A stretch of DNA of 64,000 bases from Iphione sp. A-MEVVRFRX5 (GCA_976226885.1 OZ320319.1:49910001-49974000); one strand, 5' to 3'; shown: positions 22,059-64,000, counted from the stretch's first letter. Notes: generated by a model not told the origin, from the sequence alone. Program-made: numbers and translations.

Positions 22059-23411
22059 CCTATGTAAAAAAATAAATAGTAATTATTATAACATATCCAA
22101 GAATAACAGCTCAACTAGATAATTATATATTTCTTTATATTCACTACAGGAGATGAGTACCACTACTGTGTAAAGAGACATGTGAACAATCCCATGACAA
22201 AAGAGTTCTCAGGTAAGTTTACTTTGATTGAATTACATTGAGTCAAAGAAGACTTAATATACTCACCTTTTGAGATTCATCAGGTGAAGAAGATAACGAG
22301 TAAATACTCTCCATGTCATCTCGCGGTACATTGAAATTTTGTGGAGCAGGCACATCGGAAGATACCTACAGTAGAATTAACAGGATACGTTTATTTATAC
22401 CAACATCAAATCAATATGACCAGTAATATGTACCTTTTCATAGTGATATTACATTTCACTAATTACACTGTTCTCTTACTTACAGTTGATTCCAGGAATT
22501 ACACTCACTTCAATATGTGACGTCCCTTGTCCTGTGGATTGCTTGGAAGTGCCAGGTTGTGAAATTGCATCAACTGATGATGGTAGCTCCATTGTCACCT
22601 ATGACAGAAAACACCCACTATAAATATTTTAGTCAATCATATATATATATATATATATAGAAACAACACTTCAAGCTATAACAATCAAAAGACTACAAAC
22701 TCACCTCATCATCTGTTAAGGGACTATAACGGATGTTAGCAACTACCGGAGTATTCATCTGTGACTCATGACGTCTGGTTATGTCTTCAAGAACAGTCAA
22801 ACCTTCCAGTGATTGAGATGGAGAAGATGAATCTTCATAGTCAACTAGACGACGACGCTTCTAGGGTGAATTCGTCCCTTCCTGTGACAATTCTTCCTGA
22901 GAGACAATACATCTCTTCTTAGAGGGAGAGGGACTATCCGGCGTCCACCTATCTTCATCATCCAATACTTTGCATATAGTGGTAGACAATCCATTGAAAG
23001 ACTGAGGGAGATCATGGGACTCATGAAGAAGTAGTGGTGTATTCTCTTCATTTTGTGATTGAGATAGCCCACCATATTGTGATTGATCAGGAGTGATGTG
23101 TAGAAAATTGTTCAGCAACTCCATCTAAATTCCAGAGGAATAAAATATGCATGCCAATAATACGAGTTCATCCAAATGATTAAACAAAAAGATTGTGTAA
23201 CTATATGGTCTTTGTCAGACAATATAGAATTATAAAAATGAATTAGGCTTACCTCATCCTTAGATAGTTTGTTCCTTTCTAACTCTTGTCTTCTTTCGAT
23301 CACAATCGGATTGTCTTGAAGATTCTTTGAAGTCGCCCATGTCTCAAGTTCTTCTAAGTTGGTAAAAGCAGCAACCTGCTTTCGTAGAATATTAAGCAAA
23401 GCTTGGGCCAT
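22059..23411 (-). CDS. Multi-exon N-terminal leader spliced onto pPolB (exons 23411-23253, 23124-22705, 22598-22509, 22365-22267, then 22059 onward); one in-frame TAG at 22861-22863
   Basis: All four introns have GTAAGC or GTGAGT donors, pyrimidine-rich AG acceptors and phase 0, and the product is in frame with ATG 22047. Confidence 0.7.
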
Positions 23412-23933
23412 TGTATAACAAGACGAAGACCCAAGTGATCAGATCATATGAGACAGCTGTATATATAGTCCAGTCTTACCCGCTAGACATAGCAAATACC
23501 CTTGACATCAGACACTTGAACAGTTTTAAATTTCACCCACCAACCCACCCTTCAATCAATTTTGGACATGTACGGACATGATCATGTATGTAATCCCTCA
23601 GAGTAATTTAATTAAGAGAGGAAGCTTGCGATTTAGACGTTTTTATTTCAATGACTCTCTTCCACAGATCCAATTCAATCGATTCTGCAATAAACATAAT
23701 GTTTGGTATAGATCAAAATAACCGAAGGTGTGGAGGACTACGAACGTCATTCCTTCAGAACATTCAAGGTCACTTCTCAGGTTTCACACTTGAGGATGAC
23801 GCTGTCTGCTCACTCTGAAAGATAAAAAAAACATGATTGACAGGTGATAGAATAACATTTGCTTTACATATCAAAAAGTGTATAAATCATTGTGATGGGA
23901 TACAATTTTAAGCATTCCTTTATATCCTAAAAA

Positions 23934-24797
23934 CTAATATACTGCAGACAACATTATCATACTGACCTGTTCTTTAGTGCGTTCCAGCTTCTCTAACAGA
24001 CGATCAATATCAGCCTCAGCGACGCCATACCAGGTACAGAACATATTGCCTGGTTGACCATAGTTCCGGACCTCAAAGCGCCTCTTCTGTAGGATTTCAT
24101 CTGCTAGATGATCTTTCAGACTGTTGGGGAGAGGAAGAGTGGTAATGGCCTTGCGTGTTTTGCGCACCCTGTTAGTTTCGTTGACAAGATCACGCAGATA
24201 AGAAGCACAGCATACAGAGGAAAAGACACTGTGTGAATCGGAAGAGTCCTCATCGCTTTCGTCTTCGAATATGGCGACAAAATCATCTCCAACTTCAAAC
24301 AGCTCATCACCTACCGTATCTTCAATCTCGCCGTTCTCCCCTTCCAAGGCGAATCTTATGTCAGGCTTAGGTATATTCCACCATATAGCATTCAAGGCGG
24401 ATATACCAGCTTGCGTGAATAGACTCAAACGCTCATTAAACAGATTACTCCGAAGTACTTGCATACTCTTCTTAAACAACTGGAATATTTCAAGGGGGCA
24501 ATCTTTCAGTTGGTTGACCTCAGGCCCAATTACCATGCGATGCGCGGGTTCGCCAAGTTGACAAAGAAGACATCCACCTTCACCCTCTCGCACCAATTGC
24601 TGCCCAAACGTTGGCCTTCCAACTAAATCGGACATATGTACCTTACCGGTCTTCCAATCCCATTGAAAGTCGTCAAGGAATAGAATCATAACTCTGTGCA
24701 TATCTTCTTTAAGATGAAGATATATCTCAGGAAAAAATCTTTGACCATGAAGAATTGGATCATAATATTTCAGAACATATTTTCCTGCAAGATCCAT
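23934..24797 (-). CDS. Unknown 287-aa protein with a SOCS-box-like motif
   Basis: Intact ORF; CCASYLRDLV...AITTLPLPNSLKDHL resembles a BC-box plus the Cul5-box LPLP. Confidence 0.55.
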   Translation of the reverse strand: MDLAGKYVLKYYDPILHGQRFFPEIYLHLKEDMHRVMILFLDDFQWDWKTGKVHMSDLVGRPTFGQQLVREGEGGCLLCQLGEPAHRMVIGPEVNQLKDCPLEIFQLFKKSMQVLRSNLFNERLSLFTQAGISALNAIWWNIPKPDIRFALEGENGEIEDTVGDELFEVGDDFVAIFEDESDEDSSDSHSVFSSVCCASYLRDLVNETNRVRKTRKAITTLPLPNSLKDHLADEILQKRRFEVRNYGQPGNMFCTWYGVAEADIDRLLEKLERTKEQVSMIMLSAVY

Positions 24798-25886
24798 GAT
24801 GACTTTTCAACAGAGTGATAGAACAAGATGAGAACGCGCAGCTTCAAGGTCTTTATTATTTTTTCCCATGGATCTTCACATACTTAAAAGATGAGATTTA
24901 TAACACCTTGACAGCATTATCTACTTCTCGACACCTTTGTGTTCCCATTTAAGTTTGGGAAAAGTAAACTTTACAAAGTGATCAGGGACATTCGAATAGG
25001 TTTGCATCCCTATAAGTTCTATTCAAGTGAAAAGACGTGATAACAAAGAGGTGTGAAACGCATCCAATCAAGTGGAGATGAAAAAATCGGTTCGTGTTCA
25101 GACAAGTACATCTTGATCATAGATAAGAGAAGAGGACGTGTTCAGACACATTATCTCACTTCAAATAGATTGTGAAAGAAACCGCCGACATTCCGACATT
25201 CCGACATTCCAGACGTGAGAGGGAGAGAGAGAGAGAGATTATCTTTTGTTTAATTGTTGGATCCCTAAAAAGGGATCCAGTCAAAAATTACTGCGTTATC
25301 CTGAGTGGCTGCGGCTCTCGTCGTCGATGTCACCAGTTTTTGAAATGATACGCACCTTTTGGGATGCCATGATCCGAACCTATGTCTCATTTTGTTGAAC
25401 TTTATATGAAAATAAGAGATGCGTAAATGGTGTTTCATTCACATGCTGATGACAAGTGGAGACTAATATTTTCAAATATTCATTTGGGTCTATGGAAAAT
25501 AACCACTTACCAAACAGAAAATTAATATGTAACATTTTAATCTTAGTATGGGAGCAATACACATTTATTTCAAGCAATGTCTCAAGAAATGAGTTCAAGA
25601 GACACGTCAGACATACATAGATCACGTCAGATGCCATCTTCAGGGAAAACGAAGACAACGCTGATGCCATCTGGTGTTGAACTGATGAGTCATAACTATC
25701 GTCTGCCGTAACCCTTGTCATAAGCGGGGACTTTCTCCCTTATCTAAGTAGGTCGAGTAGCGCCCACTTGTTATCATCTCGTTTCTTTTTTCTTATCTAA
25801 ATAGGTCAAGTACCGCACATCTATTATCATCTCATAATCACCTTATCTATGTTGGTCAAGTGATTAGCACTCGGTGACCTTTCTGT

Positions 25887-31453: not shown

Positions 31454-31697
31454 TTAGCCCTATCCCGACCAACACTGGGCGGATCGATCGAATTCGATCG
31501 ATCCATTTGGGTCTATTAGTCACGTGATTAAAGTTATTGTAAAAAATGTTTTTGTGAGTATTATGGTTGAATAAGTATTAAAGTATGTCAAACTGCAAAA
31601 ATAAGTAATAATTTATAAAAATTTAATATTTAAAAGGGTTACTAAGGAGTTGCTATCCAAGACTAGGGAAGGTCTGAAGTAAGGTCTCTCCAGGGCC

Positions 31698-35612: not shown

Positions 35613-36819
35613 TTTTAGTTTAAGGAAGACTTTTCCGGTCTCTAGTGTGGGATTACTTGCAAATGAAGAAACTAGCCACACTGGGATGGGTTTTCACCCT
35701 TTTATTGAGGATTATGCACGAGGGGCATGAATTCTCAACCTGGCAGTAAAGTTATGTGGCAATATATCCTTTCTGGTAGAGGAGTTGTCTACTGTCAGAG
35801 GTTCCACTTAATAAAAATGAATTATGCTTATGTGTTGGTGTTTTGACTAATAAAATGATGCAGCTTACTGAGTTGGTGTTTTTCTCCTATGTCTGAACCT
35901 GGGTCAGCCTAGTAGATGTAGAAATGGCTTGGATGGCTTCAAGGTCCCTCTGGTGGTGATGTTCAGCTGTCTGTTCCCAGATCAGATCTGTCTGAGTGGG
36001 TCAGATGTGGCTGCTTTTAAAGGGCCTGGACTCTGTGCTAATGAGGGAGGGAATCAATCAGACCTTTTGGCAAAGGTACACCCTCTGTCCAAGGGTAGAC
36101 CTTCTGCAAAAGGTACCTTTCTGCAAAGGCATGATGTAATATAGAGTATTGACCCAATGTGGTATGGGGGGAGGGGAGGCTGGTAAATCAGACCTTTTGC
36201 TAAAGGTAGGAGAGAACCTTTTGTCAAAGGTGTAGGGGTGGGGACCTTTTGTCAAAGGTGTATATAGAGTATTGATCTAATATGGTATGGGGGAGGGGAG
36301 ACTGGTAAATCAGACCTTTTGCTAAAGGTAGGAGAGAACCTTTCGTCAAAGGTATAAGGGGGACCTTTTGTCAAAGGTGTAGAGGTGGGGACCTTTTGTC
36401 AAAGGTGTAGGGGAACCTTTTGACAAAGGTATGAGGGGAACCTTTCAGAAAAGGTGTGAGAGGGGGGGGGACCTTTTGCTAAAGGTGTAGGGGGATCTTT
36501 TGCCAAAGGTATAGGGGAACCTTTTTACAAAGGTGTGGAGGGAACCTTTTGCTAAAGGTGTAGGGGGACCTTTCGCCAAAGGTATAGGGGAACCTTTTGG
36601 CAAAGGTATGGAGGGAACCTTTTGGTAAAGGTATGGAGGGAACCTTTTGCTAAAGGTGTAGGGGGACCTTTTGCTAAAGGTGTGGGGGGGAACCTTTCGC
36701 TAAAGGTATAGGGGGACCTTTTGGCAAAGGTATGGAGGGAACCTTTTTCTAAAGGTGTGAGTTATGATTGAGACTGGATTTCTCTGATGGGGAATTTTTG
36801 AAGAGTTGATAACTTAACA
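35613..36819 (-). repeat. Gypsy B 3' LTR (1207 bp)
   Basis: Direct repeat of 57841-58948. Begins TGTTAAG and ends CTAAAA on the minus strand; preceded by the PPT AGGAGGG (36820-36826). Confidence 0.95.
36060..36757. repeat. LTR U3 array of about 25 palindromic units ACCTTT-N4-AAAGGT (about 24-25-bp period)
   Basis: Counted by eye; the 5' LTR copy (about 58288-58885) has about 4 fewer units. Confidence 0.9.
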
Positions 36820-44009: not shown

Positions 44010-44600
44010 ATCAGATTTTAAGAAAAAGCCCAGGCAGTTTCGGCCGAAAACTCAGGTGAATTCGTCAAAACCCAGGTATAATCATCCGAAAATCCGGGAA
44101 ACTCAGGTGAGTTCGTCCGAAAAGCATCAAAACTGAGGTAATTTCGTCTGAAAATCCGGGGAAACTGAGGTATTTTGTGTGAACATTTGCGAAACTGAGG
44201 TAATTTTGATTGAGTTTTGACCAAACTGAGACATTTTTGTGTGAAATTTGGAAAACTTGGGTAAATTTGTGTGAGAATTGCCAAAATCTAGGGGTTTTTG
44301 TGTGAGTTATGACAAAACTTGGGTAAATTTGTGTGAAATATTGCAAAATCTATGGGTTTTTGTGTGAGTTATGACAAAATCTGGGTAAATTGTATGAATT
44401 TTGACAGAAACTTATGGGTTTTTGTATGAGTTTTGATGAAATCTGGGTAAATTTGTATGAAATTTTGGCAAAATGTATGGGTTTTGTATGAGTTTTTGAA
44501 GAATCAGGGTAAATTGGTATAAAATTTGGCAAAAACTTATGGGTTTTTGTACGAGTTTACCGGCAAAGTGTGGGTAAATTTGTATGAGATTTGGCCAAAT
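44010..44600. repeat. Degenerate non-coding minisatellite, about 25-31-bp units
   Basis: AAAACTCAGGTGAATTCGTC-type units grade into alternating AAAACTTGGGTAAATTTGTGTGA and AAAATCTATGGGTTTTTGTGTGAG units. Confidence 0.8.
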
Positions 44601-50339: not shown

Positions 50340-50675
50340 AACGGGGGAAATAAAAGATACTTCCCCTTCCTACCTACGTGAAGGTAGGGCGGCACGCCTG
50401 GGTGTACGATACGTCGATGCTTCCTTATTACGTTTGAGGGTTTGCGATTGCTTACTTTACCTGCTTTAATTGGAAGGGAATCCTTCAGTACGGGGGAGAT
50501 AAGAGTGGCCTCCCCTTCCTACCTGTGTGAAGGTAGGGCAGCATGCTGAGGTTTGTGATATCTTTCGGAGCAGGATTCTACCATTTTGTCCCTTGGAAGG
50601 ACTCCCTTCATGAACGGGGGAGATGAGGATTGTCTCCCCTTCCTACCTACGTGGAGGTAGGGTGGCATGCCAGGA
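50340..50675 (-). repeat. Three dispersed direct repeats, each with a conserved 7-bp hairpin
   Basis: CCCCTTCCTACCT-N6-AGGTAGGG at about 50363, 50512 and 50636. Confidence 0.85.
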
Positions 50676-51026
50676 GGTACTATATCTCATAGTCCTGTTT
50701 ACCTCATTTTACTTCCTTACTTTAAGCTGCGTACATGTGCATGTGGACGTCCATTCATATGTTCGTATAACTTTTAGATTCCTCTTCTTATTCTTGTTCA
50801 ACATTGTGGGCTTTTTGCCTGTACTCCTGCATTATAATCAAGGGGAGGGGTCATAATGGCTCTGATGGGAGCACATCTTCCCTGCAAGATCTTGCCTTTT
50901 TATCTGTTGTTTTTAGAATTACGCCTTTCTCTTAGAGGTGTTCCCACCTTGGTTCTTTGGAATAACATTACTTATAGGAAAAAAAGGGGGGTTGCTGAAG
51001 GGTCTGACAAGGGTTCTCTTGCCGTC

Positions 51027-57840: not shown

Positions 57841-58948
57841 TTTTAGTTTAAGGAAGACTTTTCCGGTCTCTAGTGTGGGATTACTTGCAAATGAAGAAAC
57901 TAGCCACACTGGGATGGGTATTCACCTTTTTATTGAGGATTATGCATGAGGGGCATGAATCCTCAACCTGGCAGTAAAGTTATGTGGCAATATATCTTTT
58001 CTGGTAGAGGAGTTGTCTACTGTCAGAGGTTCCACTTAATAAAAATGAATTATGCTTATGTGTTGGTGTTTTGACTAATAAAATGATGCAGCTTACTGAG
58101 TTGGTGTTTTTCTCCTATGTCTGAACCTGGGTCAGCCTAGTAGATGTAGAAATGGCTTGGATGGCTTCAAGGTCCCTCTGGTGGTGATGTTCAGCTGTCT
58201 GTTCCCAGATCAGATCTGTCTGAGTGGGTCAGATGTGGCTGCTTTTAAAGGGCCTGGACTCTATGCTAATGAGGGAGGGAATCAATCAGACCTTTTGGCA
58301 AAGGTACACCCTCTGTCCAAGGGTAGACCTTCTGCAAAAGGTACCTTTCTGCAAAGGTATGATGTAATATAGAGTATTGACCCAATGTGGTATGGGGGGA
58401 GGGGAGGCTGGTAAATCAGACCTTTTGCTAAAGGTAGGAGAGAACCTTTTGTCAAAGGTGTAGGGGTGGGGACCTTTTGTCAAAGGTGTATATAGAGTAT
58501 TGATCTAATATGGTATGGGGGAGGGGAGACTGGTAAATCAGACCTTTTGCTAAAGGTAGGAGAGAACCTTTCGTCAAAGGTATAAGGGGGACCTTTTGTC
58601 AAAGGTGTAGAGGTGGGGACCTTTTGTCAAAGGTGTAGGGGAACCTTTTGACAAAGGTATGAGGGGAACCTTTCAGAAAAGGTGTGAGAGGGGGGGGACC
58701 TTTTGCTAAAGGTGTGGAGGGAACCTTTTGCTAAAGGTGTAGGGGGACCTTTTGCCAAAGGTATAGGAGAACCTTTTGGCAAAGGTATGGAGGGAACCTT
58801 TTGGTAAAGGTATGGAGGGAACCTTTCGCTAAAGGTATAGGGGGACCTTTTGGCAAAGGTATGGAGGGAACCTTTTTCTAAAGGTGTGAGTTATGATTGA
58901 GACTGGATTTCTCTGATGGGGAATTTTTGAAGAGTTGATAACTTAACA
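57841..58948 (-). repeat. Gypsy B 5' LTR (1108 bp)
   Basis: About 7 substitutions relative to the 3' LTR, plus a 99-bp difference in the internal repeat array. AATAAA at about 57929-57934 (minus strand). Confidence 0.95.
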
Positions 58949-59088
58949 ATCTCCAATTTGTACTCATCATTTTGATATATATATTTCCAATATCCAACAC
59001 ATACAGGCTTCAAAATCAATGAATTACTTTGTTAAGGGCTGTTGGTGACGTCAAATGACGCCATTCGACTCGGTCGGGATAGGGTTAG

Positions 59089-59941: not shown

Positions 59942-60505
59942 TGTAATTTGCGTGTTTACTTTCCCATTTGGAGTAATCCAACTATTGTGTACTGCTGTAC
60001 TGCCTTGACTATCCTGCTAGTATTCCAGTGTAGCTCCCTCTTAGTATCCACCCCTAGTGGTAAGTCCAAGTGGGTTTGTTCGGCTTAGCATTCCCAAAGC
60101 AACAAGTTCCACTCAAGAGATCCAAGTGCAGACTGTTTTATTGGCCACACAGGGCCCTTATTTATACTAAACCAGCATGTCATGTGACCAACAGTGATGT
60201 CAACAATGTATCTAGTCATGGAATAAAATGGATACAACATCCCAAGTGTAGTTTCTCTTCACCAATCAGCTTAAAGCAAGTAGTTACAATATAGCAGATG
60301 CCTGGGAATCCAGGGTCCAAGGTCACCTCTACCATCAAAATTGCCTACGGTACCGTAGCCGTCCCTATCCACGGGGTTCATCAAGTACATTATGATATGA
60401 AATGCCTACGGGACCGTAGCTGTTAGTAACTCCAGGGTTCACAAAGTACACTCCTCGACAATCTCGCTATGGTACCGCAGGCAACACCGACCTTACGCTT
60501 CTACA
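59942..60505 (-). repeat. 3' LTR of a third LTR element C (564 bp, TGTA...TACA)
   Basis: Minus-strand PPT AAAGAGGGGAGAG (60506-60518) abuts TGTAG. TATAAATA at about 60160-60166 and AATAAA at 60137-60142 (minus strand). Confidence 0.7.
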
Positions 60506-63273
60506 CTCTCCCCTCTTTAAAACACATCTCAGGGGAGTAGACATGCAGTCAACCGCAATTACAGTGTTGCACCGCCTAGACCTGGGTAGAGGAATGCATC
60601 TCACATAATCCCCATAGGGGATTATTACTTACATCACTACAGATAAGAGTGGCGTCCCATCATGCCACCTGACATTCATAATCACAGTTAATCCAACCAG
60701 GTCCTCAACGACAAATTGATTTGAGGTAACTAATCACAGTAATAACAACCACAGTCCTTATCACAGCTAACTTTCTCCATCTGACTTCTTGGGTATACAC
60801 AAAACATCTTTTTGGGGCTAGGGGTGCCCTTCATTTTCTGTTCATCAGCAGGAACAATGCAAAATCGATGTAAGACTACTAATCACAGTAACAATATCAA
60901 TCACAGTAAGAATCAAGTAACAACCACAGTCTCTTAATCACAGCTAGCTAGCCTTCCGGTCTGACTTCTTGAATATGTATAATCTCTTAATCACAGCTAG
61001 CTAGCCTTCCGGTCTGACTTCTTGAATATGTATACCAAACATCTTTTTGGGGGCTACAGGTGCCCTTCGTTTTACCGACCAACAGCAGTGGCAACATCTT
61101 GCAACAGCTGAGAGGAAGAACATCTACAGTCTCTTGATCACAGCTAACTCCGCAACGTATATCACAGCTAGCCTTCCAGTCTGATTTCCTGGATAGGTAC
61201 ACCAAACATCCTGGTCCCCGTAGGGGCCCACACTACCTAGCAAGAACAGCGCTCATATATTTTTTTGAGGGAAAGAGACCTCCCCTGTCACCGTAACATC
61301 TTGTGGTACCTAATATACCTTAGCCCCCATCGGAGACATCAACACCACAATAACACAATTACTTCCATATCATACAGAGCCTCATATATACACCTAACAA
61401 TCTGATGAGGCTTCTCCCACCTCACTCTCGGGCAACCAGTTCGGTAACGTAATTAGTCTGTCTACCTAGCTGGCCCGGTCAGGGTCAGCCTCCGACTCCG
61501 TCGTCGTAGAGACCGGGACGGTGAGAGGCGCTGGGACGGTGAGAGGCGCTCCCACCTAGGAGGGGGCCACACGATCGAAGCAGGCAGCCGGACTGGGCTT
61601 GGTTGCGGGTGGTGTCTCATTGTCGCCACATGGGGCGGAACCAGGCCGCCCAGTACATCTCGCACCCGCTCAGCGATCCTCGGGCGACGGTGCGGTGACA
61701 GGACATACTGGGCCAGTCGCGTCAGATGCCCATCTCCAAGAGCTGCCGGACTGGGGACTGGTTCCGCTGCGATCCCGTCGCCGTCTAGCGTTGAACCATC
61801 AGGCTCGGCGTCGTCCAGCTCGTGGTCATCCCCTCTGCAGTCTCGCTCCTGGTATACGCCGGAGGTCCCAGGTTGGGGACCTTCCTCGCCGTCATCCGAC
61901 TCGATGTCGCTCGCCCCCACTGGACGAGCAGGGGGGGTGGAGGGCCCCCCTTCGGCCTCGTGGGAAGGTGGACCAAGGGCCACTGGGGGGGGTTGCAGGT
62001 CTACGGCGGGTGCCGTGGGCTCGGGGTGGTGAATGGTCGGAGGTGGGGCCGGAGCTGCCTCCTGTGGTATCGACAGGGGGTCGCATAGATCACACCGGCG
62101 CCCACCCCCGGGCGGTGCAGCTCTCCGGGGTGCGTCGGCAAGAAGGGTTTCGGCTTCTCCCTCTCCCATAGGCTCCCCTTGCAGCCTCCATGCACGGGCC
62201 GCAAGCAATATGCTGGTCAACTCATCGTCGGGGGCGGTTACAACATGTCCCCCCTCCTGGGCCTGCTCATGTAGCACCCGATACTCCTTTTCTGTCAGGC
62301 CCAGTTGCACGGCCCAGGCATGATAATGTCGTTGATGGGAGGCCCAATAATACTCATCTGAGATTTTGCTGGGGCACCATAAACACAACATTGGCCTTGC
62401 CCGTTTCTGTTTCTTCAGGTGATATTCCTGGACATGACGTTCAATGGATTCCCCCGGGTAAAACGGACGTGGAACAACACACCGGTGACATATGGTAACA
62501 TCCGCAGGCAGCTTACGTTTAGACTTCAACGTCGTCGGCAGTTTGGGGTGATCCACCTTTTCGCGGGTCATCTCGGGGCAACTCAGCAGCCCAAGGCTGC
62601 CTACGGGACCGTAGCGGGGGGGAGCCAGTCAAAGTCACTCTAAGTGTAAATCGTCTACTGGACCGTAGGGGAGATAGCACAATCGGTGAGGTATCGCAAT
62701 AACACAGGTGTTAACCTTACCTCTGGAACTCACAGTCTTACTAGCAAGTCCCTACGGTGCCGTAGTAGGAAGGCCGGGTCACACGTTGCCTACGGGGCCG
62801 TAGGGGAGGCGATCGTCTGCAACATCACTGTATCGTTCTTCCCCGGCGTTCTGGCACGGTGGCTCCCTCCAAAAGACTTTGTTCCACATCTATGTATGTC
62901 ATGGGTCATGGGTGCTACTCAATTCCTCTTCTCACAGGCTCCTCCTTAGCATAATTACCAATTTTCCAAGACCGAAAACACATCACGCTTCGTGGTAGGA
63001 TCCAAAACGAGGCTGGGCGGATGTTTTGGTTCGCCGCTTCCGGCCTACGGGACCGTAGCCGAATAGTCTTCACAAACTGTCTTTCTTTCCCCCGCCTACG
63101 GTTCCTTAGGCATCCTCCCATCTCGATTGTTGTTCTATAATCATTTTAGATATTTCCATACCTGACTTTCCTGTTTTAATTCCTCCCAATCGTCATAGCG
63201 TCCGCCTACGGTGCCGTAGGCACTTGTCGTGACCCTTTTTGCGTCGTTATCCACCCGGCTACGGGACCGTAGT
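60343..63273. promoter_or_regulatory. 11 dispersed palindromes (G)CCTACGG-NN-CCGTAG(C/G)
   Basis: Copies at 60343, 60404, 60466 (LTR) and about 62599, 62655, 62751, 62788, 63043, 63094, 63204, 63258. Confidence 0.85.
61462..62571 (-). CDS. Two-finger C2H2-type zinc-finger protein with an acidic/Pro-rich tail
   Basis: CHRC-x14-HVQEYH and CLWC-x12-HQRHYH; acidic SDDGEE/DDHELDDAE region; basic C-terminus. Confidence 0.7.
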   Translation of the reverse strand: MTREKVDHPKLPTTLKSKRKLPADVTICHRCVVPRPFYPGESIERHVQEYHLKKQKRARPMLCLWCPSKISDEYYWASHQRHYHAWAVQLGLTEKEYRVLHEQAQEGGHVVTAPDDELTSILLAARAWRLQGEPMGEGEAETLLADAPRRAAPPGGGRRCDLCDPLSIPQEAAPAPPPTIHHPEPTAPAVDLQPPPVALGPPSHEAEGGPSTPPARPVGASDIESDDGEEGPQPGTSGVYQERDCRGDDHELDDAEPDGSTLDGDGIAAEPVPSPAALGDGHLTRLAQYVLSPHRRPRIAERVRDVLGGLVPPHVATMRHHPQPSPVRLPASIVWPPPRWERLSPSQRLSPSRSLRRRSRRLTLTGPAR

Positions 63274-64000
63274 CGATCCAATTCCCGCGTTGTCCCTATA
63301 TAAGCCAGTGCACGTCGTGACTTGGCGTCAGTTTCACTTCAGGCGCTTAGCAGTGAACACAGGCTTTTCTCTTCTGCCATGGAGATTTGGGGCTCCTATG
63401 ACCTGGGCAAGCTATCCAGCTACCCTCCTACTGAGGATAGGTATGCAAGCAGGTGATCCTCTTGACAGCTGATCAGGCTGGAACTGGTTAGCCATTCTTG
63501 TTGGAGTTGGAGTTCTCTTACCAGTTGTCTTCAGGTTCCATGCTTCTCCTCCTGGGCCGGGAGACTCAGGTGAGTTAGGTTTTTTTTTTTTTTTTTTTTG
63601 CACTCACCTCCGTCTTCTCTCTCCTTCATTCTAGGGGGGCGGTTCCAGATCCCTACTTCCGTCACCTCGACATTGCCACCCCGGGTCCGACAGTGCGGGT
63701 TTATGGGTTGTATGGTATCTTAGACAACCCTCTGTACATCCCGTCTCCCGGCCACGTCCGTCTGTTCGGGCCCGAGCACGTCATTGATGTCACCATCCAT
63801 CCCGCTGGACCAGAGGAGCCTCCTCTACCGCAGGTGTTTGACCCATGGTGGGCCAATCATCATCAGGACCGGGTTTCGCCCGACCTCGGGGTGGCTGACG
63901 TGGACGCCACCCTGCAGAGCTGCTCTGACTCCTCCCAAGACGGCGTAGAGGGGTACATGGCCGTGCCCTGGGGCCCATCTTCCTTGCCCCTTCTTCCATC

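Follow-up and report, generated by a model that had tools for sequence, protein, structure and literature searches.

The 64,000-nt stretch of Iphione sp. A-MEVVRFRX5 analysed here (GCA_976226885.1, OZ320319.1:49910001-49974000; hereafter the window, numbered from its first letter) is a nest of animal mobile elements inserted into one another. The rightmost, element C, runs from ~59.94 kb to beyond the window edge; its 3' 4 kb is visible, and gag and pol lie beyond the window. The visible part carries a putative 3' long terminal repeat (LTR), an intact open reading frame (ORF) with two C2H2-spaced zinc fingers, a probable antisense gene and multiple copies of the palindrome CTACGG-NN-CCGTAG. 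An earlier reading of the window from sequence alone (the sequence-only reading) had proposed that the finger ORF and the palindromes form a self-transactivation circuit like that of the foamy virus protein Tas. Judged from the sequence, the regulatory anatomy at this locus is real, well defined and probably functional, and self-activation of the element is plausible.

Eight exact copies of the palindrome were found (60345, 60406, 62601, 62752, 62790, 63045, 63206 and 63259), a number that none of 100 shuffles reached (mean 0.00). Allowing up to two mismatches added 60467 (two mismatches), 62655 (one) and 63096 (one), giving 11 sites in two clusters; shuffles at this tolerance averaged 0.72 sites, with a maximum of 4 and 0 of 100 reaching 11. 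The sequence-only reading had placed three palindromes in U3 at a period of about 61, eight in the ~700 bp upstream of the finger ORF and none elsewhere, and all of this held up. The U3 set consists of two exact copies and one degenerate copy (two mismatches) at a 61-nt period. The internal set consists of six exact copies and two that each differ at one position; it lies 30-688 nt upstream of the finger-ORF ATG (62571), and the rest of the 64 kb has no copy at up to two mismatches. Among spacers of 0-7, a spacer of 2 alone was found, and six lone half-sites lie elsewhere in the window. A spacing of 51-54 nt was seen three times, which is marginal (P 0.036).

The clusters place a family-specific motif in the non-coding control regions of element C. 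The cores of the U3 sites are alike at 12, 10 and 10 of 12 positions, and their flanks at 24, 17 and 17 of 43. Around the internal sites, same-orientation flanks had a mean identity of 0.26 (maximum 0.38, 28 pairs) and inverted flanks a mean of 0.24 (maximum 0.42, 55 pairs). Because both are at background, the internal sites are not plain duplications. CpGs are intact at 19 of 22 positions in the sites, and the observed/expected CpG ratio is 0.97 in the internal cluster versus 0.52 in the window and 0.34-0.46 in elements A and B and the LTR. The arms deviate four times, in three sites, and none of the deviations is compensatory. A dimeric DNA-binding protein leaves an invariant arm, a fixed spacer and a free centre, whereas the arms of hairpins usually co-vary. 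The internal sites stand out as motif islands whose pattern fits a selected double-stranded DNA binding site, a candidate reading that follows from the fixed spacer, background flanks and retained CpGs, together with the absence of compensatory change. An origin of 63045-63272 as an inverted duplication was rejected, as the centres are not reverse-complemented and the inverted flanks are at background.

The left end of element C (59942-60505) reads as a minus-strand 3' LTR with three palindromes within its U3. It has, in one copy, the features of an LTR retroelement: TG...CA ends, an adjoining polypurine tract, a TATA box and a poly(A) signal. No second copy of this LTR was found within the window. 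A tract of 13 purines in 13 positions is reached by 4 of 4068 minus-strand TG sites, and the opposite orientation of the LTR has a weaker tract (11 of 13). A CAGT lies ~32 nt past the LTR TATA box on the minus strand, and consensus motifs would place the start site here. We considered whether this LTR is instead the plus-strand 3' LTR of the old Gypsy element A on its left. This was rejected as less likely, because the purine tract is weaker, the 5' end of element A has no matching LTR, and the palindromes are common to the LTR and the right-hand side. A search for tRNA genes found none.

The two-finger C2H2 ORF noticed from the sequence proved to be real. It is an intact frame of 369 aa, a length reached in 3 of 5000 composition-matched resamples, and its finger pair (finger 1, Cx2Cx14Hx4H, aa 28-51; finger 2, Cx2Cx12Hx4H, aa 63-84) appeared in 0 of 20000 shuffles of the first 134 aa. 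The tandem Cx2C...Hx3-5H spacing and the hydrophobic core positions of classical C2H2 fingers are present. Across all six frames, the window has just one further C2H2-spaced pair, in the Pfam-confirmed C2H2 protein of a Polinton-like element. The fingers follow a basic N-terminus and are themselves followed by a helical segment, a Pro-rich tract (20/70), an acidic tract (18/50) and an Arg/Ser-Pro tail, an arrangement that supports a transcription-factor-like layout. External support for the fingers was weak yet consistent. A phmmer search of 1.84 billion representatives gave one generic match, to a multi-C2H2 protein (E 1.5e-4), and the Atlas neighbours comprised top matches without a name at 0.94-0.95 and C2H2 families at 0.91-0.92. 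The best sequence match in the PDB had an E of 0.28, and a low-confidence structure model showed two beta-alpha units. Against the fingers, Foldseek gave no match at E 0.001 in the PDB or viral libraries. Each half-site of the palindrome has a CpG step, which we presume, as a weak pointer from the finger code, would be read by Arg +6 of finger 1 and Asp -1 of finger 2.

The sequence-only reading had also noted a TATATA at about 63297-63302. Its position was confirmed, 25 nt from the nearest palindrome; a foamy-like role for it was not supported, as it is a canonical TATA on the plus strand only and its initiator lies on that strand, leading away from the finger ORF. We used the consensus motifs for TATA boxes and initiators. 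TATA-consensus sites with this initiator distance number 1 of 60 on the plus strand and 2 of 63 on the minus strand, the latter both outside element C. Downstream, the probable antisense gene has an ATG at 63379 and a frame that is open past the window edge. It has candidate splice donors at 63441, 63453 and 63570, followed by a T-tract, a branch-like CTCAC and an acceptor at 63634. The donor at 63570 is one of four perfect plus-strand donors in the window, and those at 63441 and 63453 are compatible in phase with the downstream open frame. At 63565-63610, the antisense donor and branch-like word form inverted repeats around the 22-nt T-tract, and this symmetry places a strong minus-strand donor also at 63607.

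With the canonical TATA and initiator on the plus strand and directed away from the finger ORF, a divergent control region is a likelier identity for the cluster than an internal promoter of the foamy type. For a sense internal promoter, the canonical TATA is antisense, and a sense reading, which would use donors at 63161 and 62720, is weaker. The donor-like sites on the minus strand (63607 at 8/9; 63161 and 62720 at 7/9, a score that is common, with 123 on the strand) allow either a divergent start or splicing from upstream for the putative finger mRNA. The features of element C and of its neighbours are listed in Table 1.

Table 1. Coordinates of features of element C and of the neighbouring mobile elements in the window.
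Feature	Position	Strand	Details
3' LTR (putative)	59942..60505	minus	564 bp; TG...CA; 4-bp inverted ends; read from a single copy
LTR core promoter and poly(A) signal	60134..60166	minus	TATA box 60166; AATAAA 60142
U3 palindromes	60345..60480		60345, 60406, 60467; decayed 61-nt triplication, 211-333 nt upstream of the putative start
Polypurine tract abutting LTR	60506..60518	minus	13/13 purines before TG
3' untranslated region	60679..61201		separate degenerate repeat family (ATCACAG-containing), without the palindrome
Two-finger ORF	61462..62571	minus	intact, 369 aa, without stop; two C2H2-spaced fingers, aa 28-84
Internal palindromes	62601..63272		62601, 62655, 62752, 62790, 63045, 63096, 63206, 63259; CpG-rich island
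Possible long sense-strand hairpin	63045..63272	minus	pairs 63259 with 63045 and 63206 with 63096
TATA box and initiator	63297..63333	plus	initiator A at 63330; points away from finger ORF
Antisense spliced gene (probable)	63330..64000	plus	ATG 63379; open past window edge
Polinton-like element	7278-24806		chromodomain integrase; C2H2 protein; weak SOCS-box ORF; mucin-like membrane-protein ORF
Element A, old decayed Gypsy	27-31.5 kb	plus	integrase continues near 59.09 kb
piggyBac-like element	31458-59084		matching 13-letter terminal inverted repeats at 31458 and 59072-59084
Element B, env-bearing Ty3/gypsy	35613-58948	minus	23 kb; inside the piggyBac-like element

Among the neighbours, the piggyBac-like element is flanked by TTAG rather than TTAA, and its insertion interrupts the integrase of Gypsy A. 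Element B has Gypsy-type gag, a PR-RT-RH-IN pol and the optional env, which is of the baculovirus-F type. It is bounded by a 4-bp target duplication and by LTRs of ~1.1 kb that are 95.5% alike across 1048 nt. Relatives of its pol are ~40% alike, and 0 of 4701 candidates in the search were relatives of its env. Between pol and env lies an orphan accessory region of ~11 kb; it contains four ORFs that are paralogues of one another (44.9-49.7 kb), as well as an ORF of 802 codons with a C-terminal CCHC-like motif. Here and below, statements on published systems refer to the cited parts of each report; in that part of PMC13524379, env-bearing Gypsy elements of this kind were not found in vertebrate genomes. 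An invertebrate host for element C fits this absence, as indirect support. The class of element C itself is not placeable from the visible 3' part, as a Gypsy-type or spumavirus-type pol and env would lie outside the window.

The U3 of element B has a palindrome of its own, ACCTTT-N4-AAAGGT, in 24 copies (36062-36756) and 20 copies (58290-58885) with a period of ~24-25 nt. Inside element B there is no copy with up to one mismatch, and there are two scattered copies with two mismatches. U3 palindrome arrays are hence not special to element C, and element B does not repeat the design of element C. Such arrays need no internal twin, as those of element B show, with 20-24 copies in each LTR and no internal copy. 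That each family has its own palindrome fits a co-evolving element protein and differing host factors alike. Just after pol, at 50340-50680, element B also has a unit repeated three times with the palindrome CCTACCT-N6-AGGTAGG, which shares the ACCT/AGGT half-sites of its LTR palindrome with different spacing. At 44085-44600 it has 31-nt repeats carrying splice-donor-like words on the plus (antisense) strand. One 20-nt stretch of these repeats is 95% alike to the antisense donor of element C at 63557-63576 (E 0.07), a likeness that hints at antisense spliced genes in both elements.

We also searched for relatives of element C and its finger ORF. The finger-ORF search of viral contigs returned one locus, which was rejected as spurious since its 22-residue match (locus L017) lies outside the fingers. 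The motif-pair scan of viral contigs returned 0 loci. Sixteen metagenome loci with the motif pair were discarded as unrelated repeats, none of the 16 being BLAST-like to element C or its ORF. True homologues of the finger ORF numbered 0 of 49 candidates.

The layout, with the same palindrome in the LTR and beside an orphan finger gene, suggests that the element makes its own on-switch in the manner of a foamy virus. The probabilities that we give to this and other readings are judgements and were not computed. Under the self-activation reading, element C would be an accessory-gene-bearing animal LTR element, and the palindrome would be a double-stranded DNA site that a dimeric protein binds and that selection has maintained in U3 and in the internal region. 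The internal CpG island would serve as a control region between two divergent accessory genes. The binder would be the element's own two-finger protein, with two fingers per 6-bp half-site and one protein on each half, and its Pro-rich and acidic tracts may recruit host co-activators or counter silencing. With eight internal versus three U3 sites (one of them degenerate), a little protein would first boost the accessory genes and then the LTR. The confinement of the sites to U3 and to the upstream region of the ORF favours the element's own protein, and we give a reasonable, though less than even, chance to the claim that this protein is the binder of the palindrome and that it activates or un-silences the two promoters. 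A fuller version is doubtful: an independently evolved switch like that of a complex retrovirus, in which a captured two-finger protein would bind as a dimer to a family-specific palindrome, both in U3 and in an internal promoter that works in both directions. It would activate or un-silence the accessory genes first and the LTR after them, and every family would have a palindrome of its own.

Several observations weigh against self-activation. The best promoter beside the cluster faces away from the finger ORF and into the probable antisense gene, its TATA does not fit the consensus when read on the minus strand, and the stretch from this TATA to the finger ORF contains 11 upstream ATGs. The fingers have no Pfam match even at E 10. 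Two single-sequence structure models were of low confidence (pLDDT 44.7 and 50.3). The helix of finger 2 is acidic and aromatic (D, E, Y, Y, W), which we take, on weak grounds, to be unusual for reading DNA. No relatives of the ORF or of element C were found among the viral and metagenome contigs and protein representatives searched. In the snakehead retrovirus, the 3'ORF was a proposed transactivator that failed the test and was dispensable (PMC12193657). What stands of the Tas-like circuit is thus the site shared between U3 and the region upstream of the ORF, its behaviour as a selected DNA site and the factor-like protein; what is not supported is a canonical internal TATA that serves the finger ORF.

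A dimeric host transcription factor could govern the LTR together with the internal promoter in a single tissue, with the finger protein otherwise employed or acting only as a co-activator on that factor. We regard this as a tentative possibility to be taken seriously, since all of the motif-selection evidence is equally compatible with it. The U3 palindrome array of element B, which has no internal copy, also speaks for a host factor and against self-activation, as does the atypical second finger of the ORF, itself without a Pfam match. HTLV Tax acts as a co-activator on a host factor at its three U3 repeats. The LTR and internal promoter of Oikopleura Tor share control with no element-encoded activator known from the cited part of the report (PMC4402516). 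However, the other 59 kb, three other mobile elements included, have no copy of the 12-letter site, the site in five spellings was not found in the open-access literature searched, and an intact factor-like ORF has been kept right beside the cluster. The binder might also be another protein of the element, either the product of the antisense gene or that of a gene farther upstream beyond the window. We consider this quite unlikely. The canonical promoter by the sites drives the plus-strand gene, as expected of an autoregulated activator, and the antisense ORFs of plant Retand elements have predicted DNA binding (PMC11963269), but the 121 visible codons of the antisense gene have no family match (best Atlas neighbour 0.87, under the lead threshold) and no DNA-binding motif.

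The palindromes could instead act in RNA, for which the sequence-only reading had offered single hairpins (CUACG-GNNC-CGUAG) as an alternative. In the version considered here, self-complementary repeats would build a TAR- or RRE-like stem-loop on the sense strand, to which the finger protein would bind, aided by its Arg/Ser-Pro tail, so as to control elongation, splicing or export. Action in RNA is unlikely. We folded three regions against shuffles in which the motifs were held in place. In 63030-63285, a region picked after the sites were seen, the nested hairpin of the minus strand was matched in stability by 0 and 2 of 100 and by 0 and 0 of 200 shuffles, and the plus strand was weaker (0 and 21 of 100; 1 and 29 of 200). 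This hairpin starts ~30 nt past the TATATA read on the minus strand, contains the donor-like site at 63161 and has a symmetric 53/51-nt spacing, all of which suit a role in RNA. CERV of Cer1 is a precedent for such a role (PMC10309623), to which the Arg/Ser-Pro tail can be added. On the other side, the U3 cluster and 62590-62820 folded no better than controls (their stability was equalled by 33 to 100 of 100 shuffles), the stable region is a post hoc choice of one in three, its hairpin partners switch in longer context, and the arms never co-vary. The U3 sites lie upstream of the putative LTR start, and an Rfam search of 35000-64000 gave three matches, all under the gathering score. Individual palindromes as RNA hairpins are not favoured, given the lack of compensatory change and an LTR cluster no stabler than controls. 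The half-site as a UNCG tetraloop was dropped as the folds show it without a flanking stem. That the sites have no regulatory meaning, being old repeats homogenised by conversion or an LTR and an ORF region from different nested elements, is very unlikely. The locus is a nest of insertions with a single LTR visible, and nine of nine asymmetric centres begin with G or T on the plus strand, as after direct duplication; yet the cores are near-invariant, the flanks are at background, the CpGs are retained, and the polypurine tract links the ORF side to the LTR.

Foamy viruses and plant DNA transposons are established cases of elements that encode their own sequence-specific activators. For an animal Ty3/gypsy-type element, a kind whose accessory ORFs are mostly orphans, none was found described in the open-access literature searched. 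Internal promoters, antisense accessory genes and orphan accessory ORFs are each already known singly, the last also from PMC5408684. If self-activation is true of element C, transcriptional control in the style of complex retroviruses has also evolved beyond Retroviridae, and a function is gained for an orphan accessory gene; if a host factor binds instead, the case reduces to a neat example of shared enhancer motifs. The case is unusually testable, as the candidate site (14 bp), the candidate domain (135 aa) and two short fragments with the promoters have all been delimited.

In foamy viruses, Tas binds elements in the internal promoter and in U3 and forms a feedback loop, with the internal promoter driving tas (PMC3798896). 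Element C resembles this system in that its accessory ORF immediately precedes the 3' LTR, that both U3 and the region ahead of this ORF contain candidate response elements, and that its protein has an acidic tract; Tas itself dimerises (PMC3798896). In contrast, the response elements of foamy viruses are described as little conserved (PMC3798896), whereas element C has one strict palindrome 11 times. The finger ORF has no Pfam family, Tas-like match or other sequence likeness to the foamy system, its protein has C2H2-spaced fingers, the canonical internal TATA faces away from the ORF, and no env, pol or class is visible for element C. Fish foamy-like endogenous retroviruses and env-bearing Ty3/gypsy elements are likewise large LTR elements with orphan accessory ORFs, reported in the cited parts as without known domains or functions (PMC5512871, PMC13524379, PMC6431247). 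Element B is of the env-Gypsy kind, while element C is not placeable without pol.

Tor of Oikopleura, likewise an LTR element of an animal, has an internal promoter whose regulatory sequences are believed to be common to the LTR, but this promoter drives env in sense and no element-encoded activator is described in the cited part (PMC4402516). CERV of C. elegans Cer1 is a regulatory nuclear accessory protein of an invertebrate LTR retrotransposon; unlike the proposed role of the finger protein, it acts on RNA export, and the cited part reports no DNA palindrome (PMC10309623). Plant Retand and Grande elements share with element C a long 3' region with tandem repeats and antisense ORFs, with their own promoter and predicted DNA binding, although they are of a plant lineage, have a TRP28 domain and, in the cited part, have no shared U3/internal site described (PMC11963269). 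VANC of Arabidopsis VANDAL (PMC5735166) and TnpA of Spm (bioRxiv 10.64898/2026.08.24.746577) are element-encoded factors that act on clustered cognate motifs, with binding and demethylation demonstrated, whereas element C is known from sequence alone. Although these are DNA transposons of plants, their motifs are not palindromic and their proteins have other folds, and element C is an animal LTR element, all of them have a family-specific short motif that is clustered in non-coding parts, derives from tandem repeats and is co-oriented, with CpG kept around the motif and, in element C, an element-encoded candidate binder (PMC5735166; bioRxiv 10.64898/2026.08.24.746577).

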